Shown piece after piece: positions 8,578-50,694 of a stretch of DNA of 64,000 nucleotides (position 1 is its first letter; the number at the start of each line of letters is the position of its first letter). The translations under genes and the position numbers were made by a program. Source of the DNA: Chloroflexota bacterium (lineage in GTDB: Bacteria; Chloroflexota; Dehalococcoidia; Lucifugimonadales; Lucifugimonadaceae). The stretch spans positions 9,411-73,410 of the forward strand of contig PBLC01000008.1 in the NCBI GenBank assembly GCA_002721675.1, given 5' to 3'. The notes beneath the pieces were generated by a model. The model was not told the origin of the DNA. It was given only the letters and a program-made list of their open reading frames with translations, and did no database searches.

Positions 8578-8993
8578 CTGAACTCTATTTTATCTATATC
8601 AATTGAATCACTTTCGGAATCATCGTGTTCAAGGTCAGTAATATTGACCAATAAATTATTATTTTCAATTCCTTTAAAGGCAAACCAGTTGCCAGGCGGC
8701 ACTGTAATGATTTGATGATTTGATTTAGATAATTCCATAATTATTGGGTCATTATCAAAATCATCTTCAAAAATTACCAATTTAATCTTCCCGATTGGCA
8801 CAATAAAATTGCAAGTTTGAACATTATGCTTAATCCAGCCTTTAATAAAATTATTTTTTACTTCGGAAAAATAGACTTCTTTTACATCAAAATCATTCAT
8901 TTCAGATTTTAAGAAGCCTTTAATTAAGTCCCCATTATTACTCTCTATAATAGAAATCTTCCTGAAATGAACATTTTTGCCTAACTTGCCCAA
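8568..8993 (-). CDS. RmlC-like cupin (sugar 3,5-epimerase family, short form)
   Basis: 141 aa with a cupin pattern (KGWIKHNVQ...IITVPPGNWFAF), sitting between the dehydratase and the reductase. Confidence 0.5.
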   Translation of the reverse strand: MGKLGKNVHFRKISIIESNNGDLIKGFLKSEMNDFDVKEVYFSEVKNNFIKGWIKHNVQTCNFIVPIGKIKLVIFEDDFDNDPIIMELSKSNHQIITVPPGNWFAFKGIENNNLLVNITDLEHDDSESDSIDIDKIEFSWD

Positions 8994-10787: not shown

Positions 10788-10789
10788 GG

Positions 10790-13781: not shown

Positions 13782-14831
13782 ATGATATCTGTTGATAAAT
13801 CAGGCAAGGATACAGAGGTATATAAAAACTATTTAAGAATACTTCCATTTTTTAAAGATCTAGTCTATGAAAATAAGGCTTCAATAAGCGAATATTGGGC
13901 CGAGGAAGTATCTGGGTTTGAGTATATTTTTGATTCTTCACATTTAATCATTAATAAACTAAGGCACCATTGTTATCATTTAACCGGTGAATTTCCCTAT
14001 CCTTATAGAAGTCATCACAAGTTTAGGTCAAAGCAATTTTTTGAGAAACTTAAATTACTGGAATCAACATCATTAGTAGTAGATAAAAATTTAGATTTAT
14101 TAGTTTCTGAGCCAGAAATATTAGGTGGATTTGGATTCAAAATAGAAAATAAATATGTAAATAAAGATACATTAAAATTTTATGAGTGCATGATAGCCTT
14201 GCAAAAATCTAATTTAATTGATGCTAACAATAATAATAAAGAGTCTGTAATTTGCGAGATCGGCGGAGGTTGGGGTGGATTCGCACACTGTTTTTGTACT
14301 ATTTTTCCAAATACTAAATATGTAATTGTAGACTTACCTAATACGTTAATTTTTTCTTACTTATTCCTTTCAGAATTATTTCCTGCCAAAAAGGTAAAAT
14401 TATTTAATTATGAGGCTGAATCAACTGAAGAATGCGATTTCTTATTAATACCTAATACAGAGTTTGATAAGTATGAAGGAAGTATAGATGGGGCTATTAA
14501 CATATGTTCATTTCAAGAAATGACATCTACCCAGGTATCAGATTATGTAAATAAACTTCACGATATGGGGTCTAAGTTTATATATTCATTAAACAGAAAT
14601 TTGAATAAAAATAATCTTTCATTAAAAAATACAATTAATGATCATATTTCTGAAAAATTTATTGTAGAAAAAATAGACATTCTCAATATTCCATATACAG
14701 AATTAAATGTAAATCAAATGAAAACTTCAAAAATTAATTTTATAAAAAATATTCTCAAATTAATTACAGGAAAGAAGAAGAATAAATTTACTTCAGAAAA
14801 CGATTATCAACATTTAGTGGGAAAATTATAG
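13782..14831 (+). CDS. Class I SAM-dependent methyltransferase (putative sugar O-methyltransferase)
   Basis: Motif I VICEIGGGWGGFAHCF followed by VIVDLPNT, 349 aa, wedged between two tRNA pairs on the opposite strand. Confidence 0.5.
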   Translation: MISVDKSGKDTEVYKNYLRILPFFKDLVYENKASISEYWAEEVSGFEYIFDSSHLIINKLRHHCYHLTGEFPYPYRSHHKFRSKQFFEKLKLLESTSLVVDKNLDLLVSEPEILGGFGFKIENKYVNKDTLKFYECMIALQKSNLIDANNNNKESVICEIGGGWGGFAHCFCTIFPNTKYVIVDLPNTLIFSYLFLSELFPAKKVKLFNYEAESTEECDFLLIPNTEFDKYEGSIDGAINICSFQEMTSTQVSDYVNKLHDMGSKFIYSLNRNLNKNNLSLKNTINDHISEKFIVEKIDILNIPYTELNVNQMKTSKINFIKNILKLITGKKKNKFTSENDYQHLVGKL

Positions 14832-14835
14832 TGGT

Positions 14836-14922
14836 TGGTGCCGAGGGCGAGGCTCGAACTCGCACGCCTTTGAAGGCACAGCGCCCTCAACGCTGCTTGT
14901 CTACCAATTCCAACACCTCGGC
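14836..14922 (-). tRNA. tRNA-Leu (anticodon GAG)
   Basis: The reverse complement is GCCGAGG...CAGCG-UUGAGGG-CGCUG, with a long variable arm and ...CCUCGGC-A-CCA. Confidence 0.9.
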
Positions 14923-14931
14923 GAATTTAGG

Positions 14932-15007
14932 TGGCAGGAGCGGGAGGATTCGAACCCCCGACCTAAGGTTTTGGAGACCTTCGCTCTACCAACTGAGCTA
15001 CGCTCCT
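14932..15007 (-). tRNA. tRNA-Trp (anticodon CCA)
   Basis: The reverse complement is AGGAGCG-UAGCUCAGUUGGUAGAGC...AAGGU-CUCCAAA-ACCUU...GGGGG-UUCGAAU-CCUCC-CGCUCCU-G-CCA. Confidence 0.9.
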
Positions 15008-15028
15008 AAATAATTCGGTGTTAACAAA

Positions 15029-16967: not shown

Positions 16968-18233
16968 TTACAGAAACCTTATTTTTTGACGTAATTTGGA
17001 AATATTCATAACTTTTTTGACGAAATAAGCAAAGATAAGTAATAACAAGCTACTAACTTCGAACCTCATAGCTCCACCACTACAACTTCCTTTTGATTCC
17101 TTGTTTATATTTGAAGAACCAGATAAATCATCTTTATTGTCAAAAATTGATATCCCAAGTTCTTCTTTCCATTGAGCTTCCAAGTCTTTCAAAGAAAACC
17201 CAAAGGAAGAAATAAAGCTATCATCTATAGATTTTTTATCAGAAATCTCATCCATTAACTTAATCATAGAGCCTTCAGGAAAATTATTTATTAAAAATTC
17301 AACAAAAGACTTTGATTGTCCATAGGCAACTAAAGTTAAATTTGGATTCCCAGGAAATCTGTTTAAAGAACTAAATGGAAATAATCTACCTGTATCAATA
17401 GCCCATTCTAAATACCTTTCATAACCCTGATCCTGCTCTATATTTCCATATTCAGCTAGACCTTCATTCAGCCATAGCGGGACTCCTAAATAAGAAGATT
17501 TAGAAGCTCTTGCTACAATCACATGAGTAATTTCGTGGGTCGATACTCCTAACGCAGATCTTGATCCTCCATCAACTAACACTACATTTTCAGTCGCAAA
17601 TGCTTGACCTTCAGTGATTAATGAACTTGCTTGAGTTTCGCTCTTCTTTACCACTACATCAAACATCTCAGAATAATTGTTGTACATCATTACTGATATC
17701 TTTTCGTTTTCTTCTACACCTAGTAGTCTTGAAATTTTATTTACAGACTCTTCGCATGCTTCTAACATCTTTTTTGCTCTTCTAGAAACTGGACCATGAT
17801 AGTAAATCGTGACTATATCCCCTTCAACTTTTTCCCATTTAAATCTTGAATCTAAAAATGTCTGTTCCTTTTTTTCTGTTTTATAAGAAGAGCCGTCTTT
17901 AAAAAAAACTTCAAAGAAATAAGTCAATTTACTGCCTGGAGGTATATATCTAGATGATTGCTCAGTTGAAAAAAAATATTTAAGAGATTCGCCATTTGAA
18001 TAATTGTCTAAATCCAAATATTCATACTGAAAAGACTTCCTACCTTGGACCTTAAACTTAACCTGAATATCTTCAATATTTTCTCTGTTTAAAACATCAA
18101 TATTAAATTCAATTCCCATAGGTATAAGAGATTTTGCTGAATCATTGTTAACTATAGTTTGATCCGCACTTAAATAGTTTATATTAACGAAAAACACTAT
18201 CAAAAAAATAAATAAATAATTTGATTTCCTCAT
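16968..18233 (-). CDS. Secreted HExxH metallopeptidase-like protein (peptidase MA-type) with C-terminal CSGG + TM + basic tail
   Basis: Signal peptide MRKSNYLFIFLIVFFVNINYLSA, HEITHV...WLNEGLAEYG, and C-terminus GSCSGGAMRFEVSSLLLLIFAYFVKKVMNISKLRQKIRFL. Confidence 0.6.
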   Translation of the reverse strand: MRKSNYLFIFLIVFFVNINYLSADQTIVNNDSAKSLIPMGIEFNIDVLNRENIEDIQVKFKVQGRKSFQYEYLDLDNYSNGESLKYFFSTEQSSRYIPPGSKLTYFFEVFFKDGSSYKTEKKEQTFLDSRFKWEKVEGDIVTIYYHGPVSRRAKKMLEACEESVNKISRLLGVEENEKISVMMYNNYSEMFDVVVKKSETQASSLITEGQAFATENVVLVDGGSRSALGVSTHEITHVIVARASKSSYLGVPLWLNEGLAEYGNIEQDQGYERYLEWAIDTGRLFPFSSLNRFPGNPNLTLVAYGQSKSFVEFLINNFPEGSMIKLMDEISDKKSIDDSFISSFGFSLKDLEAQWKEELGISIFDNKDDLSGSSNINKESKGSCSGGAMRFEVSSLLLLIFAYFVKKVMNISKLRQKIRFL

Positions 18234-18833
18234 CTATTTCCTCAGAAGTTTCCAAAATATGAAAAATCTATGAACTAATCCTATAGATACAGCTATTGTC
18301 AAAACAAAAATCATGGATACTGGACTAAAAAATATTAAACCTAATCCTACAATTAATATTCTTTCTGGTCTTGTAAAGATTCCGCTCTTGGAGTTATATC
18401 CTAAACCCTCTATTCTTGCCCTCAAATAACTTATCATTAAAGAAAAAACTATTGAAATGCTTGCCATTACTACAATATTTGCATCACTTCTAAGGGAATA
18501 ATAATAAATAATTCCAACCAGTATTACTGCTTCTCCAAGGCGATCTAGAGTGGAGTCTAAAAAAGCCCCTCTTTCAGAATCCTGTTTTAATTTTCTAGCT
18601 AAAGCACCATCATATACATCCATAAGCCCTGATGCCATAACAAGTATCCCTGCTGTCTTAAAATTTCCTTGGGTGGCAAAGAAAGCTGCAATAGAAACTA
18701 CAAAAAAACCTAATACGGTTACTAAATTGGGGGTGCACCTTATTTTTACAAGAATACTTACTACAGGATCTATTATGACACTTTCTACCCTTAACCTTAG
18801 ATTCTCTCTGGATCTTTCAAAATAATCAGCCAA
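18234..18833 (-). CDS. CDP-alcohol phosphatidyltransferase
   Basis: Family motif DGALARKLKQDSERGAFLDSTLDRLGE (D-G-x2-A-R-x8-G-x3-D-x3-D), in a multi-TM 199-aa protein. Confidence 0.85.
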   Translation of the reverse strand: MADYFERSRENLRLRVESVIIDPVVSILVKIRCTPNLVTVLGFFVVSIAAFFATQGNFKTAGILVMASGLMDVYDGALARKLKQDSERGAFLDSTLDRLGEAVILVGIIYYYSLRSDANIVVMASISIVFSLMISYLRARIEGLGYNSKSGIFTRPERILIVGLGLIFFSPVSMIFVLTIAVSIGLVHRFFIFWKLLRK

Positions 18834-19920
18834 TTTTTACTCTCTTTTCATAATTTAAAATTATCTCTTGAGAAACTTCTTTCCAAGAATATCTTTTTGA
18901 AAAATGCATTCCATTTAATGATAACTTATTTATCAAGTATCTGTTTTCAATTAGTTCACAAAAAATTCTAGCGAGCCCCTCATAATCTCTATTCTTAAAT
19001 AAAATACCATTTTCGTAATTATTAACTAAACCTCTATAACCTTCAATATCTGAGGCCACGACAACTAATCCGGAAGCCATTGCTTCTAAAAGCACTATTC
19101 CAAAACTTTCATTTTCAATAGCCGGAGAGCAGAAAATCTGAGACCTGTGATACATGCCTACTAATTCATCGCCTTCCATATGATCATAAAATTTACAATT
19201 AGATATATTTGCATACTTATTTGATAAACTACTAACACCCTCTCCTACTAAATTCAAGGTAACATTACTGTGTTTTCTGATAACGATCTTAAAAGCCTCC
19301 AAAAGAATTTTTATTCCTTTTCTATCTTCATTTCTACCAACGAATAATATTCTTAACTCTTGATTTAAATTGCTTTTACTGATCTTAAATCTTTCTATAT
19401 CTACTCCGTTAGGAATTATTTCATAATTAATATCATATCCATAATTTTTTAGGGCATACCCAGCTGTTTTAGAAACACATATTCTTAATGCAGCCTTCGA
19501 TATCCAATCTTTGAATAAAAATCCCCAAAACTTAAATTTCCAATTTGAATTAAATGTAGCATGAAAAGTTAATATGACTGGCACCTTTGAAAAAATTAAA
19601 GAACACAAAGAAACAAAAGGGACTAATGGTTCATGAATATGGATAAGATCAAACGAGTTTTGTAATAAAAATTTTCTTGTATTTAATATTGAGGTAAATT
19701 TAACAGCTATTGCTGCCTTTGTTGACCCAAATTTAACTAAAGTTGGGTTTCCGACATTCAAAAAATTTATGTTTTCTAAGTTAAACGATTCATCAGATGA
19801 AGGCGCAATAATTGAAACTTTATTCCCTTTACCTGAGAGTTCATTGGCTAAATTAAGTACATGATTGGTTACTCCCCCAGTTTTAGATATATCATATGGA
19901 GAAACTATTCCGATTTTCAT
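18826..19920 (-). CDS. GT4-family (PimA-like) glycosyltransferase
   Basis: KIGIVSPYDISKTGGVTNHVLNLANEL N-terminus and a C-terminal E-x7-E region (ENESFGIVLLEAMASG). Confidence 0.8.
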   Translation of the reverse strand: MKIGIVSPYDISKTGGVTNHVLNLANELSGKGNKVSIIAPSSDESFNLENINFLNVGNPTLVKFGSTKAAIAVKFTSILNTRKFLLQNSFDLIHIHEPLVPFVSLCSLIFSKVPVILTFHATFNSNWKFKFWGFLFKDWISKAALRICVSKTAGYALKNYGYDINYEIIPNGVDIERFKISKSNLNQELRILFVGRNEDRKGIKILLEAFKIVIRKHSNVTLNLVGEGVSSLSNKYANISNCKFYDHMEGDELVGMYHRSQIFCSPAIENESFGIVLLEAMASGLVVVASDIEGYRGLVNNYENGILFKNRDYEGLARIFCELIENRYLINKLSLNGMHFSKRYSWKEVSQEIILNYEKRVKIG

Positions 19921-19921
19921 C

Positions 19922-21541
19922 TTAATAGCTTACAGCTTGGCCGTCTTTTCTAGGATCTGATCCTCCAATTAATATTCCATTTTCATTCCTATTTATAATT
20001 TGTCCTCCTCCAAACAACCCTCTTTCATATCCATCCTTTAAATCTATGTTATGAACTTTATTTTTTAACTCTAATATCACTTGTTCAGGGAAAGAATTTT
20101 CTAAATAAACTAGATCTTCTTCTATGCTAACACTAAACCTATGACTATCCAGTGCAGATTGAGGACTCATTCGATAATCAATCATATTAGAAATTACTTG
20201 AAGATGGCCTTGGGCTTGCTGAAATCCTCCCATAACTCCCATAGAACTAACTAACTGATCATGTTTAGTTATCATAGCTGGTATTATGGTATTAAATGGT
20301 CTTTTTAAAGGTTCAAAAATATTTGGATGATCTATGTTTAATGAAAATAAAGCTCCTCTATTTTGTAATGCTATGCCTGTTTCTGGAACCACTAAACCTG
20401 TGCCAAAACCCTGATACAGGCTATTGATTAAAGAGCAAGCATTTCCGTCTCCGTCAATTACTGAAATATAGACTGTGTCTCCCTGATGTTTAAAATTCCC
20501 TTTTTTATAATGATAATTTGACCTAGAATCATCAATCTCTTTGAATCTTTCTTTTGCATATTCCTTAGAAAGTAATTGCTCTACAGGAACTTTCACCTTA
20601 GCAGGATCAGCAACATACCAAAGAGCGTCTTCGAATGCTATTTTCATCGATTCAATTTGATAATGGAGTTTATCTGATTCAGAATCAAATTGATCAAAAT
20701 TTTCAAAAATATTGAGTGCAATTAAAGCGGCAATTCCTTGGCCATTGGGAGGGCATTCCCAAATATCATATCCTCTATAATTTGAAGTTATAGGTTCTAT
20801 CCACTCGCTTTCATGGCCTGCAAAGTCTTCTTCGGAAAGCCATCCATGGAAACGTTTTACATAATCTGAAATTCTATTTGAAATATCTCCTTGATAAAAA
20901 TAAGATTTTCCATTTTCTGAAATACCCTTTAATACATTAGCAAGGTTAGGGTTTGCAAAAAAATCTCCAAATTTTGGAGATTTGTTATTAATTAAAAAAT
21001 CACAATTATCATTAATTGATAATTTACTCTGACTTGAGTTCCATAGATTAGCAGTAATTTCTGATACTCCAAAGCCTTTATTAGCGATATCAATTGCAGG
21101 CAATAAAACTGAATCAAGAGAAAAATTACCAAATTTATCTAGTAATTCTTGCCATGCATCTACAGCACCAGGAACACTAACAGACATACCAGAAAATTTA
21201 CCTTCAGTAGGGATTTCCTTAAACCCAAATTCAGTAAAATCTTCAATCTTAGAATTCTTTCCTGACCTCCCGCTTCCATTTAATGCTTTTACAGAAGATG
21301 AATCTTTATCGTAAATAAGGGCGAATACATCACCTCCTATTCCTGTAGACATTGGTTCTACGACATTTAAAACAGATGCAGCACATACTGCTGCATCAAC
21401 GCAATTTCCGCCTTTTTTTAAGATATCAAGGCCTGCATTAGCAGCAATGGGATTACTTGTAGCTACAATCCCATTCAAACCCAAAACATCAGAACGACGA
21501 GATGTAAATTCATTTCTTGAAAACATTTCCATAAAACTCAT
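19922..21541 (-). CDS. ggt: Gamma-glutamyltransferase family protein, no signal peptide
   Basis: GGNCVDAAVCAASVLNVVEPMSTGIGGD and the autoprocessing region HQGDTVYISVIDGDGNACSLINSLYQGFGTG. The N-terminus is not hydrophobic. Confidence 0.85.
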   Translation of the reverse strand: MSFMEMFSRNEFTSRRSDVLGLNGIVATSNPIAANAGLDILKKGGNCVDAAVCAASVLNVVEPMSTGIGGDVFALIYDKDSSSVKALNGSGRSGKNSKIEDFTEFGFKEIPTEGKFSGMSVSVPGAVDAWQELLDKFGNFSLDSVLLPAIDIANKGFGVSEITANLWNSSQSKLSINDNCDFLINNKSPKFGDFFANPNLANVLKGISENGKSYFYQGDISNRISDYVKRFHGWLSEEDFAGHESEWIEPITSNYRGYDIWECPPNGQGIAALIALNIFENFDQFDSESDKLHYQIESMKIAFEDALWYVADPAKVKVPVEQLLSKEYAKERFKEIDDSRSNYHYKKGNFKHQGDTVYISVIDGDGNACSLINSLYQGFGTGLVVPETGIALQNRGALFSLNIDHPNIFEPLKRPFNTIIPAMITKHDQLVSSMGVMGGFQQAQGHLQVISNMIDYRMSPQSALDSHRFSVSIEEDLVYLENSFPEQVILELKNKVHNIDLKDGYERGLFGGGQIINRNENGILIGGSDPRKDGQAVSY

Positions 21542-23482: not shown

Positions 23483-25159
23483 TTAGTTTTGAATATAAAC
23501 GTTTTTTAACTTAGGAACAATTAAAGGTGTAAACTCAAAGCCTCTCACTTTAGGTTTAATTAAGGCTAGGCCTTCCTGATCAAACCACATTGGAAGCCAA
23601 GGAGCATCATCAATTATCATTTGTTCAGCCTTGTTATACTTACTTATCCTAGTTAAAGGATCTTGATCAACCCTAGCTTCTTCCAGTATTTCATCTACCT
23701 GTGGATTACTATAGTTTCCATGATTCCCTTTACTTTCAGAATGAAAAAGAATATCAACAAAGTCTTGAGGGTCAGGATAATCTGCTTGCCATCCAGATCC
23801 TCCCCAAACTTGGAGTCTTTCTCTATGAAGGTCTTGCAGATAAGTTGCCCACTCGACCTGTTGAATTTCAATCTGAATACCTAACACCCTGTCCCACATA
23901 TCTGCTACAACTTCCATATCTAGACTTGGTGATCCACCAGTACCAGGTATAGTAACAACTATTAATGGTCTCGTTTCAGGGTCTGCATATTTAGACTCAC
24001 CCAATAATTTAACTGCCAGGTCAGGATCATATTCTAATCCTTTAACATCACTTGAGAATCCGGGAAAATTAGGAGGAAGGATACCATAAGCAGGCTTTAC
24101 CAAGTCAGAGTAGACTTGAGTTGCGATTAATTGTTTGTCGACAGCATAATTTAATGCCTGTCTAAACTTCGGATCATCAAATGGGGGTTGCTTTACATTA
24201 AAGCCAATATAATTAATAGTAAATGATGGTGGCACAGAAACTAGATCACTGCTCAATGGGTCGTTCTGGTCTTGAACTCTTTCTAAATCAGCAAGTCCAA
24301 CCCCAGTAATATCTATTTCTCCATTTTCATACATCGCCATGGGAACACCACCTGCAAGATTAAATTCAACCCTATCAAGTTTAGCTTTATCTCCCCAATA
24401 TAATTCGTTCCTCTTCAAAATAAGAACTTGACCCAAATCGTATCTTTCTAAAGTAAATGGGCCTGTAACAACCGGAGAATCAGTCCAATTATCACCTCCC
24501 TCACTTACATTAGATTCTTTTAAAACATATGCTGTGGGATATGTAAGTTTTTTTAGAAAATATGCTTTTGGAGAATCGATTTTTATCTGCAAATTTCTAT
24601 CATCTATAACTTTTATTCCCGAGATCTCAGTTGATTCTCCATCCAATACTTCTTGGACTCCAATTATGTCTCCTAAATATAATTCAGCCACTGGTGATTC
24701 AGTGTCTGGATTTGCTGCCCTATTAAATGAATACATAAAGTCATTGGCAGTTACTGGAGACCCATCAGAAAATTTTATATTTTCTCTTAATGTAAAAGTG
24801 TAAAGAGTGCCATTTTCACTTACATCCCAACTTTTGGCCAAATCAGGTATTGTTTCTAAATTAGAATCTATACTGACTAGACCTGAGAACATTTCAACTA
24901 CTAAACCTGCTGAAGTAGTATCAGTTACTAAATGTGGGTCAAGAGTAGGAGGATCTGACCACAGTCTTTTTAGAGTTCCACCCTTCTCGCTTCCAGTTTC
25001 TCCAGAATTACTAGAGCCTTTCAAAGAAGGTGCGATAGATTTTTGACTTTCACCTGAATCTAGTAAGGGTTCATTCTCAATACCTCTAGCCGAACAAGCA
25101 AACAAAGATATTGTTGCAATAATTAATAATAATGTAGATATTTTTTTCATTTTTTTCAT
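23483..25159 (-). CDS. Family-5 solute-binding lipoprotein (peptide/glutathione type)
   Basis: Lipobox LFAC, a Ser/Gly-rich linker, then a family-5 SBP body (GGTLKRLWSDPPTLDPH...). Confidence 0.85.
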   Translation of the reverse strand: MKKMKKISTLLLIIATISLFACSARGIENEPLLDSGESQKSIAPSLKGSSNSGETGSEKGGTLKRLWSDPPTLDPHLVTDTTSAGLVVEMFSGLVSIDSNLETIPDLAKSWDVSENGTLYTFTLRENIKFSDGSPVTANDFMYSFNRAANPDTESPVAELYLGDIIGVQEVLDGESTEISGIKVIDDRNLQIKIDSPKAYFLKKLTYPTAYVLKESNVSEGGDNWTDSPVVTGPFTLERYDLGQVLILKRNELYWGDKAKLDRVEFNLAGGVPMAMYENGEIDITGVGLADLERVQDQNDPLSSDLVSVPPSFTINYIGFNVKQPPFDDPKFRQALNYAVDKQLIATQVYSDLVKPAYGILPPNFPGFSSDVKGLEYDPDLAVKLLGESKYADPETRPLIVVTIPGTGGSPSLDMEVVADMWDRVLGIQIEIQQVEWATYLQDLHRERLQVWGGSGWQADYPDPQDFVDILFHSESKGNHGNYSNPQVDEILEEARVDQDPLTRISKYNKAEQMIIDDAPWLPMWFDQEGLALIKPKVRGFEFTPLIVPKLKNVYIQN

Positions 25160-27815: not shown

Positions 27816-28659
27816 ACTAATTAAACACAATCTTAAAAATATAAGTATAGGTATAGTTGTTGGTTTCGCTGATTTATTTCCCGGGGTGAGTGGAGGCACA
27901 ATTCTCTTTCTTTCTGGAAAGTACAATAATGTGATTTATTCGCTTAATTCAATAGTAAGAAAGGTAACTTTAAGGAAAGAAATTTCTCCTAGAAAAATTG
28001 AATACAATCTAATTATTACACTACTAATAGGGATACTTTTGTCAGTATTTATTTTTACTAAATTGGCTTCTTTTCTTTTTGAAAATTATGGCAATGAATC
28101 AAGGGTATTTTTAATAGCCTTAATGATTTTCTGTAGCATCAATTTGCTAATTAAATTGAGAAAAAATAGAAAATTATTAGTGAATATATTTCTTGGATTA
28201 ATTATTGGATTGACTTCGATATTTATCCCTAATATAGGTAAATCAGATCCGGTTTTTTATATTATTATTATTTCTGGACTTTTATCTTTTGGGTTCATGA
28301 TATTACCAGGCATTAGCGGATCATCAATACTTTTAATCTTGGGTACATATGAAAGCACAGTAAATTCAGTAAATGAAATGGACTTATCGTATTTACTTTT
28401 GTTTTTATCAGGAGGTATAGCCGGGTTCTTAACAGCCATAATGTTAATAAAAAAAATATTAGATCAATACAAAGATGAATTTAGAATAATTATCTCAGGT
28501 TTAATTGTGGGTGCGAGTATTGGACTATTATATGACCTACCTAAAAATTCATACTTAGACCTATCTTTGTATCTATTCTTTATTTCTGGAATCATATTGG
28601 CTCTAATTTTAATTACACTAACAAACTATTTCACAAGAAATGAAAGTAACCAAGATTAA
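27793..28659 (+). CDS. DUF368-family membrane protein (PopT-type polyprenyl-phosphate transporter family)
   Basis: FADLFPGVSGGTILFLSG and a second PGISGSSILLILG repeat, multi-TM. The internal ATG at 27793 is preferred to 27763. Confidence 0.65.
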   Translation: MKRIRLIKLIKHNLKNISIGIVVGFADLFPGVSGGTILFLSGKYNNVIYSLNSIVRKVTLRKEISPRKIEYNLIITLLIGILLSVFIFTKLASFLFENYGNESRVFLIALMIFCSINLLIKLRKNRKLLVNIFLGLIIGLTSIFIPNIGKSDPVFYIIIISGLLSFGFMILPGISGSSILLILGTYESTVNSVNEMDLSYLLLFLSGGIAGFLTAIMLIKKILDQYKDEFRIIISGLIVGASIGLLYDLPKNSYLDLSLYLFFISGIILALILITLTNYFTRNESNQD

Positions 28660-29167
28660 ATATTTTTTATTCTTCTTGATAGTCATTATTGGTTGCAATA
28701 ATGAAGATACAAATTTCATTGAAATTGAGCAATTCAGCAATAATGAAAGTTATTTAAATATTGATAATTTTAAAAATATAGGATTTAAGGTACTAAAAGA
28801 ATATGATGTTTCAGGACTAAAAAATGCTAATGGTGCTTTTTTTGGCTGGATGAAAGATGAATTAAATAACACTTATGATTATGAATTAAGATTTTATGAC
28901 ACTCACGATAACGCAAAAAATTCTATAGAAATAATAGAGGAAATTATAGGAGAAGATGCAATACTAGCATCAAGAGATGTAACTTGGAAAGAAGGCAATT
29001 CGGATAGAAGGGTAAATAGGAGAGGTGCCGGATCAGGGCCTGGGTCCGCAAAGGCAAAATATCTACACTACATTATATACGGAAATACTGTAATCCTATG
29101 CGAAGGGCTAAGCGTCGAAGAATCAAAAAAAATATGCACAAATTTTATAAATCAAATTATTCAATAA
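28640..29167 (+). CDS. Hypothetical lipoprotein
   Basis: Signal peptide plus lipobox FLIVIIGC. I do not recognise a domain. Confidence 0.45.
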   Translation: MKVTKIKYFLFFLIVIIGCNNEDTNFIEIEQFSNNESYLNIDNFKNIGFKVLKEYDVSGLKNANGAFFGWMKDELNNTYDYELRFYDTHDNAKNSIEIIEEIIGEDAILASRDVTWKEGNSDRRVNRRGAGSGPGSAKAKYLHYIIYGNTVILCEGLSVEESKKICTNFINQIIQ

Positions 29168-39150: not shown

Positions 39151-39783
39151 ATGAGAATATCTTGGATTTCAGATTCGGGCTTGAGAATAGAAACCTCCCA
39201 AGGTTTAATCCTTTATAATCATACCTCAGACTCACTATCTAAAGATTCCCAAAAGGATGAAAACACTATAGCTATATTCCGTAATGAAGAAAGTAAAAAT
39301 GTTTCTAAAAATAAAATATCTGACTCAACAGATATAATTTTTGAGCCTGGTGAATATGAAATTAATGGAATACCTATACAAGGTCAAGCTGTAAAACTAA
39401 ATACTGAGAATCTTGATGAAAGTACTACAATTTATTCTGCGATTAGTGAAAATTTATGTATTTGCTTTGTGCAAGATATTAATAAAATTACAATTCCGGC
39501 TTCTGTTTCAGAGGCTATAGGAAAGGTAGATATTCTAGCGTTGATTTGTAATCCGACTTCTGAAAACACAACAGAATCAATTAATTCATTAGTAAGTTCA
39601 CTCGATCCTCAGGTATTAATACCAATAGAAAATAATTCCAAAGGTGAAAATTCAGAAATATACCAAAAATTGATTAAAGAACTAGGTCATCAGGCCGAAG
39701 AAGCAATAGCTAAGGTAAACATAACAAAATCAGGGCTCCAAGAGACTCTAAAGGTATTGAACCTTAGAAAAACGTCTTTATAG
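39151..39783 (+). CDS. Hypothetical protein, possibly a degenerate MBL-fold (UPF0173-like) protein
   Basis: There is an AAGGAG SD 7 nt upstream. The N-terminus MRISWISDSGLRIETSQGLILYNH resembles small metal-dependent hydrolases, but no HxHxDH motif is present. Confidence 0.35.
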   Translation: MRISWISDSGLRIETSQGLILYNHTSDSLSKDSQKDENTIAIFRNEESKNVSKNKISDSTDIIFEPGEYEINGIPIQGQAVKLNTENLDESTTIYSAISENLCICFVQDINKITIPASVSEAIGKVDILALICNPTSENTTESINSLVSSLDPQVLIPIENNSKGENSEIYQKLIKELGHQAEEAIAKVNITKSGLQETLKVLNLRKTSL

Positions 39784-40875
39784 CCTTATACGGGCTAATA
39801 TAGGCTTTCTGAACCTACTTGATAGAGATATTAACAGCCCTAGAACAAATATAGAGAATAGAGATATAGATGATGCTCCTCCGCCTCCAGAACATCCTCC
39901 GCCTTCAGCAACAGGTGGAGCAGGTGCATCTTCAACTTTATTTGCAGATAACGACTCAACCTCAGAAGGTGTTGGCGTAGCAACAACTATAATAGTTTCT
40001 GGCTTAGGAGTAGGTAAAGGTTCAGGTGTAGGCGGAACAGGTGTTGGAACTGTAGTTTCTTTTATTTCAAAATCAGGAAAAAGGAAATTTGCATCACTTA
40101 CAAATTGATTTGGCTGAAATGGAACTGTAGTAATACTGTCATTTCCTTGTATAACAAGCCTCATAGGTTGATCAACATAGTTTATAGTAATAGGGTTTAT
40201 TGAAATAGAATATTTACCGTCCTTTGTTTCGACAGTATCAGAAATATAATCTTGGATCTGCGCATAAACCTTTACTCCATCTGGAACAACATCAGAACCT
40301 ATTACGATTTGGCCAGAATATAAACTTGGATTAATAGTAGGCATAGGGGTTGGAGTTGGCGGAACAGGTGTTGGAGTAGGCCTAGGTATAGTATTCACTA
40401 CTAAATTAAACGTCACATTCATACAGTTGCTTAACCTGCATCCATCAGCAGCAGTAGGTAAAAATGCTAAAGATTCAGTGGCCTTAATTCCACCTACATA
40501 AATATCAAAGATAACTTTTCCAGGAACACCTGGACCAATATCTATATGATATTTACCAGGAATATCAGCGCCAAATACAGTTGAAAACTTAAAATGCCCT
40601 TCTTCTAAAGCAGCATTCTTACCATCTATATTCAAAGATTGTGCCTGACTAATAAATTCTACTTCTAAATTACTAATGCCAGTATCAATATTTTCTAGTT
40701 TCTGACCTATTACAGTAACGCTACCTTGATAATGCACAAACTCAGGCAAGAAATTAAAATCCATACTTGGAGGTGTCGTATGATTATCTGCGCTAATGTT
40801 AATAGCAAATATACTAAAGATAACTATTGAAATTAATGTAGAGAGGTATCTAAATTTATATGTTTTTATATTCAT
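39778..40875 (-). CDS. Secreted two-module Pro/Thr-linker protein with C-terminal CSGG + TM + basic tail (candidate envelope stalk/anchor)
   Basis: Signal peptide ...FAINISA, linkers PRPTPTPVPPTPTPMPT and VPTPVPPTPEPLPTPKP, and C-terminus GGGCSGGGGASSISLFSIFVLGLLISLSSRFRKPILARIRL. The ATG at 40875 is preferred to the TTG at 40884. Confidence 0.6.
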   Translation of the reverse strand: MNIKTYKFRYLSTLISIVIFSIFAINISADNHTTPPSMDFNFLPEFVHYQGSVTVIGQKLENIDTGISNLEVEFISQAQSLNIDGKNAALEEGHFKFSTVFGADIPGKYHIDIGPGVPGKVIFDIYVGGIKATESLAFLPTAADGCRLSNCMNVTFNLVVNTIPRPTPTPVPPTPTPMPTINPSLYSGQIVIGSDVVPDGVKVYAQIQDYISDTVETKDGKYSISINPITINYVDQPMRLVIQGNDSITTVPFQPNQFVSDANFLFPDFEIKETTVPTPVPPTPEPLPTPKPETIIVVATPTPSEVESLSANKVEDAPAPPVAEGGGCSGGGGASSISLFSIFVLGLLISLSSRFRKPILARIRL

Positions 40876-40983: not shown

Positions 40984-43900
40984 TTACGGAGAAGGTGGTA
41001 CGATCGGTAAGATCGATCCATCTGTCCTAGGAACTACATAGATCCACAATCCTTGACCAGTGGTTACGTTAGTACCAGAGGCCACTTCTGTGAACTTAAG
41101 GTTAGTAGTATCGTAACTGTACACGATATCGTGTCCACCTGCGCTACCATCAGTTAAGTCACCGAAGTATAAGGTTTGAGTTGTAATCGCTGTACCATCG
41201 CTACCTTCAGTATTAGCTCTAGATACATCTGAAACTCCTACGAAGTTCCAGCCAGCCACTGTAGGGATAGTTACCACTGCTGGAGGGGAACCTGCAGATG
41301 GTTCAACCGGACCTACCAATGCAACTGATTGGCTTTCGAAGTTGTTGTTGTGTACCCAATAACCATGACCTGAATGTATCGCAGCCAATGATCCAACGAA
41401 TTTACCAGAACCTGAGTCCTTAGTAGCACTTGACCATGTGTGATCAGAGTACGAAAGAACCATATCTACACCAGTGTTCGAGAACACTGAGTCGATAGCA
41501 GGATCCACTGGATCCGACGGTACTGATTTAGCGTTCCAACCAGCGAGTAGACTCATCTTGAAGTCTTTTCTAGCTGCAACACTGAATGATTTACTTGCTT
41601 CACTACTTGCGTTTCCAGCAAAGTCAGTGGCTTTTGCAACAATCTTGTGCGTGCCAGCTGTTAATGCTGTAGACGGTACGTAGTAGAATTTCTTGTTATC
41701 TGTAGTAGATAACGAAGCGCTAATGTCTACTCCATCCAAAGTAGCTGTATTAATAGTTACCTTGTTATCTTCACCAGTGCTGTAGTCAAGTACAATGTAC
41801 GGCTTAGTTTGCGTAGTTGTAGATGCTTCAGCTGGAGTAATTGACAATGCAGGAGCAGTATCGTCTAAGTTGAATACTAAGTAACTCGCAGTAGACGAAA
41901 TTGATCCGTGAATTGTTATGTTAGCTGCTGTTGCCTTATCTTTAGCAGTTACTACAACAGTCTTATCACCGTCTGTTCCTGGCGTACCAGATGCAGAAGT
42001 AATAGTGTACTTGAATGTCTTAGTGCCTTGAGCAGTCATAGAAGCATCCAAGATTACACCTGCAGAAGTTGCATCAACTGTAGAAGTTGAAGCAGGAGTA
42101 TGAGCATCACCATTTCCGTCAACAGTGAATGAATCCACTGGAGGATCTGCTGATTTGTTCAAAGTCCTAATGTTGTAGTCATCGATTTCAAGCATCGAAG
42201 ATCCAAATCCACAAGTACTTACAGCGCCACAAGCACCAGCATAACCAGTTGTGGTTGCACCAGAGTTGTCTGCACCAGCCTTGGCCATACCAAGGTCATA
42301 GACGTCCACCTTAGGGTTAGACACTAGTTCCTCATCTGTCGTAACTGTAAGAACCATAGTGGTCTTAGTTAAGTCAGCTGTAGTTTCTAATGCACCTGTA
42401 CCTGTACCTGAACCACCACTCAATGTAGCAGTAACAGTAGGGTGAATCTTGTCAGTTGCGTTTGCTAGAGAACCTGTAGACGTAGAGTTTCCTGCTATGT
42501 CTGATACAGATCCAACAAGCGCCACTTTAGGAGTGTTGTCAGCTGACATTGAAGCACCTAGTGTTAAGAACACTTGAGTAGGCAAAGCTGTTTGTATAAC
42601 AGCTTCAGTAGGTGTATGTGTAGTTCCGTCATCAAATGTGATTTGGAAGTCAGTAGCATCGATGTCTGTGATATTACCATCAAACTCTACAACTAGAGCG
42701 TTAGCTTTTGTTGAAGTGTGTTTGTGAGTCTTATTAGCAGAATCGATACTAGTATCCCACCACCAGCCAGTGTATGCAGCTGAAAGTGATGGAAGTTTTT
42801 GGTCAATCTTAATGTGGTGTGCACCATATTTCTCTAACACACCAGCGTTAGCAGAAGATGATGAGTCTGAGTAACCTACGTTACCAGCCAAGTCAGTAGC
42901 TACCGCCTGGAAGTCAATCCAGTGGTTCACAGGAGTATTAGCTCCTAGTGGAAGCGCTGTGCTTGGAGTGTAAGTGTAAGTCAAACTTGATACACCATCA
43001 CTTGAAGTACCTCTGTTAACAGTAACAGAAGATGCAGTTCTTGAAGTAGTGTCATCACCAGTAGACGAACTAAGGGTAATGTCACCGCCAGTAAGAGTGA
43101 AGATTGCAGCTGTTAGCCAATCACCACCAGCACCTTCGTCATTACCAGTAGCATCATGTAATGCACTAGTAACCATAACGTCGATACCGTTAGTAGCACC
43201 AACCGATCCATCCTCACCAGTACCATTATCAGTCTCTGAACCTTCCTGAACAATTAGTAGAGCTCCACTTACATCTAGTCCACTGGCAGCTTCAGTAGCT
43301 GTCACGCTAAATGCAGGAGTCCTTGTCTGATTCTCAGAACTGTGTGCAGGAGAGTTAATAGCAACTGATGGTACAGTCGCGTCAATTTTCGCTGTTACTT
43401 GTCTCTTTTGAGAAGTGTTAGAGTCGGCGTCAACTGCGTCTACGTATTCAGCGTAAACAGTTCCACCGTCTTTAACTGCCAAAGTAGAAGTTACTGAGTG
43501 AGCTGCTCGACCAGCACCAGTAGCACATTCTGCCGCACAAGGCGTTAGAGCATTTGTGTTACCGTAGCTGCCCATATATACAGTATCAGCATCATTAGTA
43601 GTAGCGTTGTTAGCAGCCATACCTAGAGGCATAGCAGTGTTTTCGTTATCAAACACGTTAACTAGACCATTGAATACACCAGTGTTTCTACCAGTCTCTG
43701 TCAATAGAATGCTTATAGCGTTTGAAGACGAAACAACACCACTCCATACTTTAGCGGTAGTTGTGTTAATTCTTGAAGTCTTCCACTGTACTAGTCCAGC
43801 AACGACAGCAGTGTTATCAGATTCACCTGTTAAGCTCTCGTCAGCATCGTTACCATTTCCTGGTTGCCAGTTCATCGCCTCAGCTTCCGCTAAGTCACCA

Positions 43901-44817
43901 GTACCAGTTTGTACAGTAATAATTGCAGGAACTCCATTAGCAGGATCACCAGAGTTTCCAACTGAAAGTGCAATTAATGAACTTGTAGTTGAAGAACATT
44001 TTGGTGACTTGTTGAAGTTACCCATGTTAGCGTCTGGAGCTAGAGCCTTGTCTGACAATGTCATGTCAGCTTTGTGACCGTCTCTACCTAGAGCAACTGT
44101 ACCAGCTGTTGCATCAGTAATAACGTTAGCTGATGTAGCACCAGTTGGACCATTTGCTATTGTAGTTCCGTCTAGAAGAGAGTCTGCAGTTGCTCTGGCA
44201 GTCGGTGAGTATGTTCCATCATAGAATGGAGTTGGTATACCATCGTTGTCAGTTGCAGCTCCTTCAGAATAACCTGATCCTAACCACCTACATGCAAATG
44301 TAAGGTCGGAACCAGTTATAACTCCGTCGCTGTTTGTGTCAATAATTGGGATAGCGTACTCATTTATAGCATCATTAGCTTCCTGATAATTGGTAATTAA
44401 TGTACTAGATGAAGAGTGTCCACCCTTTAGGATGACGATCGTACTCTTAACAACAGCGCTGTTAAGGTCAGAATCGACAACCTCGATTACAAGTTGGTTA
44501 GACCCAGTCATGACGTGCCTACCAGTAGAAGTGTAAGTAGCATAAAGGCTCTTACCCGCTCCTACATAAGTAGGTGTAGTTCCACCATAAGTTGAGGCCA
44601 ACTTGCTTGGGCTCGAAGCAGTTGACAGTTTAGACCAATTGTTTACCAAGTTGATCTTTCCTGTTGCTGCCGCTTGAGCCGTATCGGTTTGTTGATTGAA
44701 TCCTATGATAGACGCAACTACCAACATCATGGCAGCTAATCCACCCAGGACTCTTGCAGAGATGATATTTTTCACTCTGTTTTCCCCCTTTACCTTTTTC
44801 CGGATTACTCTGGACAT
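40984..44817 (-). CDS. Giant secreted Thr/Ser/Ala/Gly-rich surface protein with Ig-like repeats (S-layer-like), no recognisable anchor
   Basis: Signal peptide ...TDTAQA|AA. Three [AV][ST]D[ILF]AGN motifs (ATDLAGN, VSDIAGN, ATDFAGN) of the kind that end bacterial Ig-like domains. Many N-x-S/T sites. AAGGAG SD 12 nt upstream. GC is visibly far above its neighbours. Confidence 0.7.
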   Translation of the reverse strand: MSRVIRKKVKGENRVKNIISARVLGGLAAMMLVVASIIGFNQQTDTAQAAATGKINLVNNWSKLSTASSPSKLASTYGGTTPTYVGAGKSLYATYTSTGRHVMTGSNQLVIEVVDSDLNSAVVKSTIVILKGGHSSSSTLITNYQEANDAINEYAIPIIDTNSDGVITGSDLTFACRWLGSGYSEGAATDNDGIPTPFYDGTYSPTARATADSLLDGTTIANGPTGATSANVITDATAGTVALGRDGHKADMTLSDKALAPDANMGNFNKSPKCSSTTSSLIALSVGNSGDPANGVPAIITVQTGTGDLAEAEAMNWQPGNGNDADESLTGESDNTAVVAGLVQWKTSRINTTTAKVWSGVVSSSNAISILLTETGRNTGVFNGLVNVFDNENTAMPLGMAANNATTNDADTVYMGSYGNTNALTPCAAECATGAGRAAHSVTSTLAVKDGGTVYAEYVDAVDADSNTSQKRQVTAKIDATVPSVAINSPAHSSENQTRTPAFSVTATEAASGLDVSGALLIVQEGSETDNGTGEDGSVGATNGIDVMVTSALHDATGNDEGAGGDWLTAAIFTLTGGDITLSSSTGDDTTSRTASSVTVNRGTSSDGVSSLTYTYTPSTALPLGANTPVNHWIDFQAVATDLAGNVGYSDSSSSANAGVLEKYGAHHIKIDQKLPSLSAAYTGWWWDTSIDSANKTHKHTSTKANALVVEFDGNITDIDATDFQITFDDGTTHTPTEAVIQTALPTQVFLTLGASMSADNTPKVALVGSVSDIAGNSTSTGSLANATDKIHPTVTATLSGGSGTGTGALETTADLTKTTMVLTVTTDEELVSNPKVDVYDLGMAKAGADNSGATTTGYAGACGAVSTCGFGSSMLEIDDYNIRTLNKSADPPVDSFTVDGNGDAHTPASTSTVDATSAGVILDASMTAQGTKTFKYTITSASGTPGTDGDKTVVVTAKDKATAANITIHGSISSTASYLVFNLDDTAPALSITPAEASTTTQTKPYIVLDYSTGEDNKVTINTATLDGVDISASLSTTDNKKFYYVPSTALTAGTHKIVAKATDFAGNASSEASKSFSVAARKDFKMSLLAGWNAKSVPSDPVDPAIDSVFSNTGVDMVLSYSDHTWSSATKDSGSGKFVGSLAAIHSGHGYWVHNNNFESQSVALVGPVEPSAGSPPAVVTIPTVAGWNFVGVSDVSRANTEGSDGTAITTQTLYFGDLTDGSAGGHDIVYSYDTTNLKFTEVASGTNVTTGQGLWIYVVPRTDGSILPIVPPSP

Positions 44818-48853: not shown

Positions 48854-50305
48854 ATGATAAATCCTTCAAAACTCACAGCTATTGAATGTGCTGAATTGAT
48901 TCAAAAAAAGGAAGTATCTGCCACTGAGATAACTAAGATATTTTTAGAGAGATCCAAAGAAGTAAATTCAAGCATTAATTCTCTGATTACGATAAGTGAA
49001 GATTATGCATTAAAGCAAGCAAATAAAATTGATAGCAACTTTGAGGATTTTAAAAATAAACCTTTATTAGGGGTTCCAATATCAGTTAAAGATGTTATAT
49101 CTACAAAAAATATAAAAACTACTGCAGGCTCAAAAATACTAAGTAATTATATTCCTCCATATGATGCTTTTGTAATAAAAAAACTAATAGATTCAGGGGC
49201 AATAATTATAAGCAAATCAAATTGCGATGAATTTGCAATGGGATCTTCAAATGAAACATCTTATTTTGGAGCATGCCGCAATCCTTGGGATTTGGAAACC
49301 GTGCCGGGCGGTAGTAGCGGAGGATCAGCAGCCTCAGTTGCCTCGTCTCAAAATTTAATCAGTATAGGATCTGATACAGGAGGGAGCATAAGGCAACCAG
49401 CCTCATTATGTGGGATAGTAGGAATGAAGCCAACATATGGTTCAGTAAGTAGGGCTGGACTTATAGCTTTTGGTAGTTCATTAGACCAAATAGGACCATT
49501 CGCAAAAAATGTTCAAGATTGTGAAAAATTATTTTACTCAATTGCAGGACATGACCCTAAAGACTTAACTTCATCAAAAAATAAATTAAAAAATTCTAAA
49601 AATTTAAATAATTTAAATAATTTAAAAATTGGAATATGTACTGATATTAGTGATCAAGGAATTTCTGAAGGGGTGAAAAAAGTCTTCAAAAATTCTGCAA
49701 ATGCCATGAATAAATTAGGGGCTGAAATAGATGAAATTTCAATTGATTATATCAAGGAGTCGCTTCCTGTATATTACTTAACAGCACCTTCAGAAGCTTC
49801 TTCTAACCTTAATAGATATGACGGAATAAAATATGGCTACTCTAACCAAGATGGTAAAACTTCATGGGACACGATAGATCTGACAAGATCAAATTTTGGA
49901 GATGAAGTAAAAAGGAGAATTTTACTTGGAACTTTTGCTCTTTCTTCTGGTTACTATGATGAATATTACGGAAAAGCACAAAAAATTAGAGGGTTAATAA
50001 TCAACTCTTTCAATAATGCTTTTAAAAAATTTGACTTGATAATTTCACCAACTTCACCAATAACAGCTTTCAAAATAGACTCACAAATAGATGACCCTTT
50101 ATTGATGTATCAAAATGATATATGTACTATGCCGGCTAATATTGCGGGGATTCCAGCAATTTCAATTCCCTGTGGGTTATCGAATGGGCTTCCTGTTGGT
50201 TTACAAATTATGGGTCCAAACTTTTCTGAGGGGATGATATTTTCTGTGGCAAAATTGATGGAAAGTAATATGAATCTTAATTTATTGGAAGAGGTAAATA
50301 TATGA
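48854..50305 (+). CDS. gatA: Glu/Asp-tRNA amidotransferase subunit A
   Basis: Start MINPSKLTAIE at the ATG at 48854, 1 nt after the gatC stop. GVPISVKD, GGSSGGSAASV, GSDTGGSIRQPASLCG. Confidence 0.9.
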   Translation: MINPSKLTAIECAELIQKKEVSATEITKIFLERSKEVNSSINSLITISEDYALKQANKIDSNFEDFKNKPLLGVPISVKDVISTKNIKTTAGSKILSNYIPPYDAFVIKKLIDSGAIIISKSNCDEFAMGSSNETSYFGACRNPWDLETVPGGSSGGSAASVASSQNLISIGSDTGGSIRQPASLCGIVGMKPTYGSVSRAGLIAFGSSLDQIGPFAKNVQDCEKLFYSIAGHDPKDLTSSKNKLKNSKNLNNLNNLKIGICTDISDQGISEGVKKVFKNSANAMNKLGAEIDEISIDYIKESLPVYYLTAPSEASSNLNRYDGIKYGYSNQDGKTSWDTIDLTRSNFGDEVKRRILLGTFALSSGYYDEYYGKAQKIRGLIINSFNNAFKKFDLIISPTSPITAFKIDSQIDDPLLMYQNDICTMPANIAGIPAISIPCGLSNGLPVGLQIMGPNFSEGMIFSVAKLMESNMNLNLLEEVNI

Positions 50306-50694
50306 TCAAAAGAATAATATTTAGCTTAACTATATTGATTTCAATTATTGCCTGTTCTGAGGAAGTGCAAAAGCCGATAGATCCTGGATTGCCTCCGGAG
50401 TTTCCTCATGTATTCATGGGTAATGCTTATGTTAACGGAGACCCCATTAAACAAGGTATAACAATCTATGCAAAATTTGGGGCATCATACTCACAAGAAG
50501 GCGAAACAATAAGCGGAGGGAGGTATGTGAATGTTCTTGTCGCTCCAAAAAATTCAAAAGAGACTAAAGAAACTGTCACATTCCACATGAAGACTGAAAA
50601 TGGAGAAGAAAAAGCAAAAGAAACTTTCAAATTAAAAAAAGTACCCGAGCCAGAAATTGTTAATTTTGAACTAAATTTTAATTCTTATCCTTGA
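50302..50694 (+). CDS. Small lipoprotein carrying one copy of the module found twice in the 39778-40875 protein
   Basis: Lipobox ISIIAC. PHVFMGNAYVNGDPIKQGITIYAKF...GGRYVNVLVAP aligns by eye with PSLYSGQIVIGSDVVPDGVKVYAQI...DGKYSISINP. Confidence 0.5.
   Translation: MIKRIIFSLTILISIIACSEEVQKPIDPGLPPEFPHVFMGNAYVNGDPIKQGITIYAKFGASYSQEGETISGGRYVNVLVAPKNSKETKETVTFHMKTENGEEKAKETFKLKKVPEPEIVNFELNFNSYP

Follow-up and report, generated by a model that had tools for sequence, protein, structure and literature searches.

Do two otherwise unrelated secreted proteins of a marine bacterium carry the same C-terminal sorting signal, or do they simply end in similar membrane helices? The question is raised by a 64,000-nucleotide stretch of the Chloroflexota contig PBLC01000008.1 (hereafter the window, meaning the whole stretch that was analysed), which encodes a secreted surface protein of 365 aa (gene A, 39778-40875, minus strand) and a secreted HExxH metallopeptidase of 421 aa (gene B, 16968-18233, minus strand). 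The initial annotation, made from the letters alone, had described on both a Cys-Ser-Gly-Gly motif, one hydrophobic helix and an Arg/Lys cluster, and these parts were indeed seen in the sequence at both C-termini. The N-terminal signal peptides that it had assigned to the two proteins hold as well, as each shows a basic n-region, a hydrophobic core and an Ala before an Asp, and AlphaFold2 places a helix at each N-terminus. The shared tail is real and beyond chance. We read it as a MYXO-CTERM-like, cysteine-based signal, specific to the lineage of marine SAR202/Dehalococcoidia, by which proteins are anchored or sorted at the C-terminus; we consider the chances of this reading to be about even.

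The open reading frame (ORF) of gene A is listed from a TTG at 40884; its length was counted instead from Met4, which is nearly invariant in alignments of A homologues, in which Ala32 is invariant (48/48). All features of A and B given here lie on the minus strand. The signal-peptide-like segment of A, as read from the sequence, is MNIKTYKFRYLSTLISIVIFSIFAINISA (40789-40875), where Ala is followed by Asp, and it coincides with a helix at residues 4-29 in an AlphaFold2 model built from the family alignment (mean predicted local distance difference test, pLDDT, 81). In this model, two beta-sandwich domains (residues ~45-165 and 185-275), connected by Pro/Thr linkers, are followed by a disordered stretch (305-340, with pLDDT <50 around the Cys motif) and by a C-terminal helix (342-366). 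The C-terminus reads ...EGGGCSGGGGASS-ISLFSIFVLGLLISLSS-RFRKPILARIRL. Within it, the motif GGCSGG lies in the disordered Gly/Ser-rich segment (39883-39900, Cys331 being encoded at 39892-39894, as located from sequence and alignment), the spacer GGASS separates the motif from the hydrophobic segment ISLFSIFVLGLLISLSS (39817-39867, mean Kyte-Doolittle hydrophobicity 2.55), and a predicted basic cytoplasmic tail RFRKPILARIRL (39781-39816) runs up to the stop codon (39778-39780).

Protein B, a surface metallopeptidase, starts with the signal-peptide-like segment MRKSNYLFIFLIVFFVNINYLSA (18165-18233), likewise read from the sequence with Ala followed by Asp. Its AlphaFold2 model, also from the family alignment, has a helix at residues 3-18, a beta domain (28-145), the peptidase domain (150-358; Peptidase_MA_2, PF13485, E 1.4e-27), a disordered stretch (364-392, pLDDT <50) and a helix at 393-420. 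The C-terminus reads ...KGSCSGGAMRFE-VSSLLLLIFAYFV-KKVMNISKLRQKIRFL, with the motif GSCSGG in the disordered linker (17073-17090, Cys384 at 17082-17084, from sequence and homologues), the spacer AMRFE between motif and hydrophobic segment, the hydrophobic segment VSSLLLLIFAYFV itself (13 residues, 17019-17057, hydrophobicity 2.08), a predicted basic cytoplasmic tail KKVMNISKLRQKIRFL (16971-17018) and the stop codon (16968-16970). The helix region of B (17019-17072) is unusually short, and its charged entrance, [KR]-M-[SG]-F-E, is kept across B homologues.

The two proteins thus follow a common plan. Each begins with a signal peptide and closes with a disordered linker that holds G-[GS]-C-S-G-G, a helix and a tail of Lys/Arg, and in both the motif starts 40 residues before the stop codon. 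The pattern G[GSA]C[SGN]GG occurs exactly twice when the window is translated in all six frames, both times in these tails; given the amino-acid composition of its long ORFs, ~0.003 occurrences would be expected. When the last 60 residues of all ORFs of at least 80 codons in the window were scanned for a Cys with a hydrophobic run and two or more Lys/Arg behind it, A and B alone were recovered. The motif is rich in Gly, encoded by GGN codons, in a genome of 33% GC, and so it runs counter to the mutational bias. Could chance or composition nevertheless have produced two unrelated helices that each follow a low-complexity Gly/Ser stretch with a Cys? The tail is the best segment when A and B are compared by BLASTP, with no other similarity between them, but at 18.5 bits (E 0.34) it is not significant alone, and the IR(F)L ending of the two proteins is not conserved; both points favour coincidence. 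Set against this are the excess of the motif over expectation, with both copies at the same position relative to the C-terminal helix, and the independent conservation of each motif in more than 95 homologues (position counts are from 87 scored for A and 97 for B). We regard coincidence as highly improbable.

Conservation was followed in both families. We obtained 110 A homologues from the database, 105 of them full-length, and the Cys is kept in all 105, in genomes ranging from 33% to about 60% GC. Positions were scored automatically in 87 of them (the other 18 were shown to be Cys-bearing by their tails), with Gly at -2 in 83 of the 87 and Ser, Gly or Asn at +1. Even those A homologues that share only a repeated domain of ~110 residues, from genomes of 3-4 Mb and 54-59% GC, keep the Cys, and the high-GC A tails read GGGC[GS]..(10-13 residues)..AAANMLLLxAPLGLIAGxRxxRRRR. 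Across 48 diverse A homologues Cys331 is invariant and Gly329 nearly so; among 13 closer ones G329, G330, C331, G334-G336, S338 and S341 are all invariant, while the linker before them is variable. The motif of A is therefore an island of invariant columns within a variable, disordered linker.

More than 600 B homologues are present in the database. Among the 112 full-length homologues listed, 100 keep the Cys, as G-S-C-[GSN]-[GN]-G, and 12 homologues from SAR202 have a Cys-less helix (P0209-P0212, P0214, P0216-P0219, P0222, P0224 and P0225). Where helix and Cys could both be located automatically (97 homologues), Gly is found at -2 in 85, Ser at -1 in 82 and Gly at +3 in 80, and +1 is nearly always Gly, Ser or Asn. 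Common to both families is only G-x-C-[SGN], located in a flexible segment with the Cys 7-15 residues outside the helix. Homologues from higher-GC genomes have lost the Gly run after the Cys and retained the Cys, and they have a Pro in mid-helix (APLGL, MPFAAW). Pro in transmembrane helices is common among the substrates of intramembrane proteases. Past the helix, homologues have on average 4.4-4.8 Lys/Arg (range 2-8), rich in Lys in the low-GC lineage and in Arg in the high-GC lineage.

This conservation bears on two points of the initial annotation. It had held that a tail limited to these two proteins and not conserved in their orthologues would be a plain membrane anchor, and the tail turned out to be conserved in both families, as counted above. 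It had also taken the similar extreme C-termini, (K/R)IR(F)L, as a feature of the tail. That ending is retained in the closest relatives only (P0001-P0010 for A, as 'ILARIRL', and P0111-P0112 for B, as 'KIRFL'), and it was rejected as a signal element, since an ending limited to the nearest relatives is not part of the signal. Judged by the criteria of Haft for tripartite C-terminal sorting signals (bioRxiv 10.1101/2023.06.07.544157, section 5), the tails agree with criteria 1, 4, 5, 6 and 8, and with criterion 3 within each family; exactly one pair of dissimilar carriers, A and B, shares the tail.

To which class would such a signal belong? The window proteins and their tails match no CTERM model among the 18,950 models of NCBIfam at E up to 10; the initial annotation, too, could not assign them to a named family by eye. 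For the families as a whole this has to be revised, because 28 homologue tails compared with the same models gave mostly MYXO-CTERM-type matches, with a few scattered weaker matches elsewhere. TIGR03901 was the most frequently matched family (8/28 tails, best E 5.7e-4), and further matches were to myxosortase-dependent protein families, JDVT-CTERM (4/28 tails) and TIGR03382. Individual TIGR03901 scores were 6.7-18 bits, and one low-GC A homologue, with the tail ...GGGCSSSGGGNSSISIFS..., reached 20.2 bits with the cutoff at 20. These matches depend on the Cys. Its replacement by Ala in the five best-scoring tails led to the loss of every TIGR03901 match, and the natural Cys-less tails gave no TIGR03901 match at the motif, the single match of 9.6 bits among them spanning the helix alone. 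Neither motif nor model match was found in the tails for PGF-CTERM and PEP-CTERM, an LPXTG-like motif was absent from them, and the Cys-bearing tails matched no LPXTG model. On these sequence comparisons, the tail appears to belong to a MYXO-CTERM-like class of Cys signals that current NCBIfam models miss, for which a lineage-specific CTERM model would be justified. The possibility that the tail is a named family with a known sorting enzyme, which the annotation had also considered, thus applies in part: the tails would be divergent relatives of MYXO-CTERM, and a myxosortase is known (PMC11980579).

The Gly-rich motif right before the helix (GGGCSGGGG in A) calls for comparison with another class, the GlyGly-CTERM signals, in which a rhombosortase would recognise the Gly run, cut, and join the new C-terminus to a phospholipid head group. 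GlyGly-CTERM, too, places a Gly-rich motif before a helix and a basic tail, on secreted hydrolases; moreover, B shares its tight operon with the gene for a CDP-alcohol phosphatidyltransferase, a phospholipid head-group enzyme, and phospholipid enzymes have been tied to C-terminal anchoring in the case of ArtA with PssA/PssD (PMC7157517). However, the GlyGly-CTERM model TIGR03501 was not matched by any of ~40 tails at E up to 10, the invariant residue is a Cys, which is foreign to GlyGly-CTERM, and not a Gly pair, and it is the Gly run that the higher-GC homologues drop. No rhomboid gene was found in the loci read, and the known systems are those of diderm Proteobacteria with type II secretion. 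A GlyGly-CTERM-type signal is accordingly very unlikely here.

MYXO-CTERM offers the closer comparison. In that system MrtX, a CPBP protease, cleaves the tail, the Cys residues are required and cleavage works in E. coli, whereas a lipid on the Cys, which Lgt may attach, has only been proposed (PMC11980579). TraA's MYXO-CTERM peptide consists of GGAFCCG, a spacer of ~12 residues, the helix FLLLLAAGLTFL and the tail RPRRPAR (PMC11980579), an architecture that matches the A and B tails. MYXO-CTERM signals in general (TIGR03901/TIGR03382; MrtX/MrtC/MrtP) share with them the invariant Cys flanked by Gly, the short spacer, the helix and the basic cluster, and their carriers, too, have a signal peptide and include metallopeptidases and adhesin-like proteins. 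There are also differences. The window tails score below detection and their homologues reach about 7-20.2 bits with the cutoff at 20; two carrier families stand here against 6-43 carriers per myxobacterial genome (bioRxiv 10.1101/2023.06.07.544157); and the SAR202 host is monoderm and wall-less, so that the myxobacterial type II secretion step has no place. The basic cluster of A and B is, in addition, rich in Lys.

Among the other Cys signals, CGP-CTERM works in single-membrane, S-layered cells. CGP-CTERM and JDVT-CTERM resemble the window tails as Cys-based tripartite signals with predicted CPBP processing (bioRxiv 10.1101/2023.06.07.544157), but A and B have no GP after the Cys, no above-threshold match and, unlike the two-gene pair of JDVT, no adjacent enzyme gene. 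The PGF-CTERM signal of the Haloferax S-layer glycoprotein, processed by the archaeosortase ArtA, is a functional analogue, likewise found on a surface protein with a Thr/Pro-rich linker before the tripartite signal, in a wall-less S-layered cell. In the ArtA system the helix is replaced by a lipid anchor and the phospholipid head-group enzymes PssA/PssD are needed (PMC7157517), and here gene B directly follows a CDP-alcohol phosphatidyltransferase gene. On the other hand, A and B lack the Pro-Gly-Phe motif and any match to its model, their invariant residue is a Cys, and ArtA, a Cys transpeptidase, is unrelated to CPBP proteases.

What such a signal could do depends on the envelope of the host. 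The window is bacterial and of 33% GC, with a ribosomal-protein operon, Rho, DnaJ and Amt together with PII, and the host belongs to a marine Dehalococcoidia/SAR202 lineage. The six related loci that encode A are all syntenic and come from marine metagenome-assembled genomes (MAGs) of Dehalococcoidia, Chloroflexota or SAR202; a marine 'Chloroflexi bacterium' MAG encodes a protein 100% identical to B, and B is also encoded on Tara Oceans scaffolds. Genome-streamlined SAR202 have genomes of <2 Mb and GC <40% (PMC11994032), a description that the window organism fits. Cells of SAR202 are monoderm, with no peptidoglycan synthesis encoded and with an S-layer-like coat (PMC10444878; PMC11994032). 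Cell-wall sortase anchoring would thus be unavailable to them, and lipid or membrane anchoring would be needed.

Three proteins of the window start with a classical lipobox, namely an SBP_bac_5 protein (LFAC; 23483-25159, minus strand), a DUF6810 protein (IIGC; 28640-29167, plus strand) and a small protein of no assigned family (IIAC; 50302-50694, plus strand). The Lgt/Lsp pathway is therefore very probably present in the organism, and with it the chemistry of Cys lipidation.

What we observed is the architecture of the tail, its conservation, the fact that two unrelated proteins of one genome bear it, and a weak likeness to MYXO-CTERM that depends on the Cys; that the tail is lipidated and cleaved, and by which enzyme, would follow by analogy with the known systems. 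By this analogy, the proteins would be exported by Sec through their N-terminal signal peptides, and the C-terminal helix with its Lys/Arg tail would, by the positive-inside rule, hold them in the single cytoplasmic membrane with the body outside. The invariant Cys, 7-15 residues outside the helix in its Gly/Ser-rich segment, would then receive a lipid, and the helix would be cut off by a membrane-embedded endopeptidase, most plausibly a glutamic protease of the CPBP/Rce1 type like myxosortase. The product would be a lipid-tethered protein on the outer face of the membrane, beneath the S-layer, and, the cell being monoderm, transport across an outer membrane would be unnecessary. The position of the Cys in a flexible segment, the mid-helix Pro and the lipobox lipoproteins support this mechanism without proving it.

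Before this mechanism is weighed, the genomic setting of A has to be considered. Directly upstream of A lies a gene for a secreted protein of 1277 aa (40984-44817, minus strand) that has a Big_13 domain, no C-terminal anchor of its own and no match to the PDB by sequence. A protein of 1000-1277 aa also precedes the A homologue in four related loci (L008, L009, L010 and L023; 33% to 59% GC), and the block of large protein, A, Lactamase_B_3 protein and HrcA is kept over the same range of GC while the outer neighbours vary. The 1277-aa protein is a candidate S-layer or large surface protein, and the pair that it forms with A recalls an S-layer lattice protein and the stalk that holds it to the membrane, A probably being the membrane-proximal stalk or anchor partner. 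The resemblance to SlaA/SlaB lies in a large secreted protein (1000-1277 aa) followed by a beta-sandwich/linker protein of ~360 aa with a membrane helix, a pair that is conserved across the class. S-layer genes of the slaA/slaB type have been reported in SAR202 genomes (PMC11994032), and these may include the A pair. A and the 1277-aa protein differ from SlaA/SlaB in having no sequence match to solved structures. A itself has no match in Pfam, NCBIfam or, by sequence, the PDB, and Foldseek returned only generic pilin/adhesin-like Ig folds (TM-score 0.13-0.19). To our knowledge, SlaB has no conserved juxtamembrane Cys motif.

Downstream, the Lactamase_B_3 gene (PF13483; 39151-39783, plus strand) is convergent with A and overlaps it by 6 nt, on the last two A codons, and this adjacency is kept in every related locus read. 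The encoded protein has no NCBIfam match and, by eye, no obvious HxHxDH motif.

A partner of this kind would suit a permanent transmembrane anchor as well, and this is the alternative that has to be weighed most carefully. Under it, A and B would be type I membrane proteins that keep their helix, the Gly/Ser segment would be a hinge, and the Cys would serve for an intermolecular disulfide, for metal binding or for acylation without cleavage. A number of results favour it, and these same results weigh against a dedicated sorting signal. The first is the number of carriers. We found no third carrier family in the searches that were made. An exhaustive search of 1.84 billion representatives with a low-GC tail profile (25 sequences) gave 18 matches, all of them A/B fragments or short-contig chimeras, and a word-indexed search with a high-GC tail profile gave 4, all A fragments; with 44 positions, the low-GC tail profile is too short for significance on tails as divergent as that of A is from that of B, so the exhaustive search is not evidence of absence. 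A scan of ~400 kb of related loci for Cys-helix-basic tails recovered A and B homologues only. In those related loci A is moreover single-copy and always follows the secreted protein of 1000-1277 aa. The initial annotation had proposed a genome-wide tail profile as the means to count carriers, and had taken a restriction to these two proteins, without conservation in orthologues, as the mark of a plain anchor. The shared and conserved tripartite module speaks for its dedicated signal; a restriction to two carriers may nevertheless hold, the profile, of little power, having recovered fragments of A and B alone.

Four singletons (P0234, P0235, P0236 and P0240) do carry an A- or B-type tail on an unrelated N-terminus, one with a lipoprotein-like signal and one a partial polyprenyl synthase. 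They come from contigs of <1.4 kb and are thus probably assembly chimeras and not new families.

The second result is the want of a sorting enzyme. The initial annotation had seen none in the window, and Pfam, applied to the multi-pass membrane proteins of the window and to the related loci (some of them from genomes of 1.2-3.6 Mb), turned up no gene for a CPBP protease, a rhomboid, a sortase or an exosortase, either there or in the 10 kb on each side of the window. A scan for CPBP-like ORFs (EExxxR, FxxxH, HxxxN/D and at least four helices), for which there was no CPBP query from the same lineage, gave a single false match, an FtsX protein. Myxosortase has likewise not been reported from beyond Myxococcota and Bradymonadales: its core model, NF040914, found none outside these groups in more than 14,000 representative proteomes in 2022 (bioRxiv 10.1101/2023.06.07.544157). 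In the same work, such MYXO-CTERM matches as lay beyond Myxococcota were singletons and were taken for false positives, and Chloroflexota are not mentioned (bioRxiv 10.1101/2023.06.07.544157). Our literature search found no paper tying Chloroflexota, SAR202 or Dehalococcoidia to a CTERM signal or a CPBP protease. Peptidase B was also considered as the sorting enzyme and rejected, its catalytic domain being soluble and extracytoplasmic and B itself bearing the tail.

Three further points lie in the proteins themselves. The window tails match no CTERM model, as given above. The 12 B homologues with a Cys-less helix have it at the same place, so that the peptidase can function with a plain anchor. 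Finally, A is paired with a large surface protein in the manner of an S-layer lattice and its stalk, and the archaeal stalk SlaB, as in Sulfolobales, retains its helix; if A is such a stalk, a permanent helix is expected.

A permanent anchor nevertheless explains poorly what is most constant in the tails. A hinge accounts neither for the presence, in two unrelated proteins, of an invariant Cys that has Gly at -2 and a small residue at +1 and lies at a fixed short distance from the helix, nor for the retention of the Cys from 33% to about 60% GC while the linker varies freely. The Cys-dependent matches to MYXO-CTERM-type hidden Markov models would be a coincidence, and a Cys that stands alone and unpaired in a disordered stretch outside the cytoplasm would be unusual if its role were structural. 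We therefore treat the permanent anchor as a serious but less likely alternative and continue with the Cys-based signal.

Beside B, the gene order deserves description. In a tight operon (16968-21541, minus strand), seen also in the related loci L007 and L024, genes for a gamma-glutamyltransferase, a family 4 glycosyltransferase (GT4) and a CDP-alcohol phosphatidyltransferase come first, in this order, and B closes the row; the phosphatidyltransferase stop abuts the B start (18233/18234). The top matches of the transferase are (archaetidyl)inositol-phosphate synthase models, at 135.6 and 124.8 bits with cutoffs of 180 and 170, respectively. The order GT4, transferase, peptidase is retained in a SAR202 genome of 62% GC. 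The operon may connect the synthesis of an inositol lipid to a C-terminally anchored surface protease.

If the Cys-based signal is combined with both neighbourhoods, a larger picture can be drawn, namely an as yet undescribed Cys-based lipid-anchoring pathway of SAR202/Dehalococcoidia that would tether an S-layer stalk and a surface protease to the one membrane of a cell without a wall. Its enzyme would not be a recognisable myxosortase, and its lipid would possibly be an inositol phospholipid or a glycolipid made by the GT4 and phosphatidylinositol-phosphate (PIP) synthase genes upstream of B. We offer this combined picture as a speculation that is rather unlikely to be right; if true, bacteria would have their own equivalent of the archaeal ArtA/PssA system or of an anchor like glycosylphosphatidylinositol (GPI).

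If the MYXO-CTERM-like signal is correctly read, Chloroflexota would join diderm Myxococcota, Synergistota, some Proteobacteria and Thermococcales in the MYXO-CTERM/myxosortase class, which would then also include a single-membrane bacterial cell. SAR202 are among the most abundant bacteria of the deep and the surface ocean and are hard to grow, and the tail gives a testable handle on the assembly of their envelope. Were the tail merely a permanent anchor, the finding would be an ordinary one.

Two other regions of the window were noted. A glycan cluster (5568-11770, minus strand) encodes two nucleoside triphosphate (NTP) transferases, two epimerase/dehydratases, a methyltransferase and a family 2 glycosyltransferase (GT2), and Pro/Thr-rich linkers, as in A and other surface proteins, could be its targets for glycosylation. 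Between 13565 and 15007, four tRNA genes (Leu-TAA and Cys-GCA; Leu-GAG and Trp-CCA) surround a gene of 349 aa with a weak O-methyltransferase match. The listed ORFs at 11841-13601 and 14831-15013 overrun these tRNA genes, and the ends of these ORFs are thus probably non-coding.

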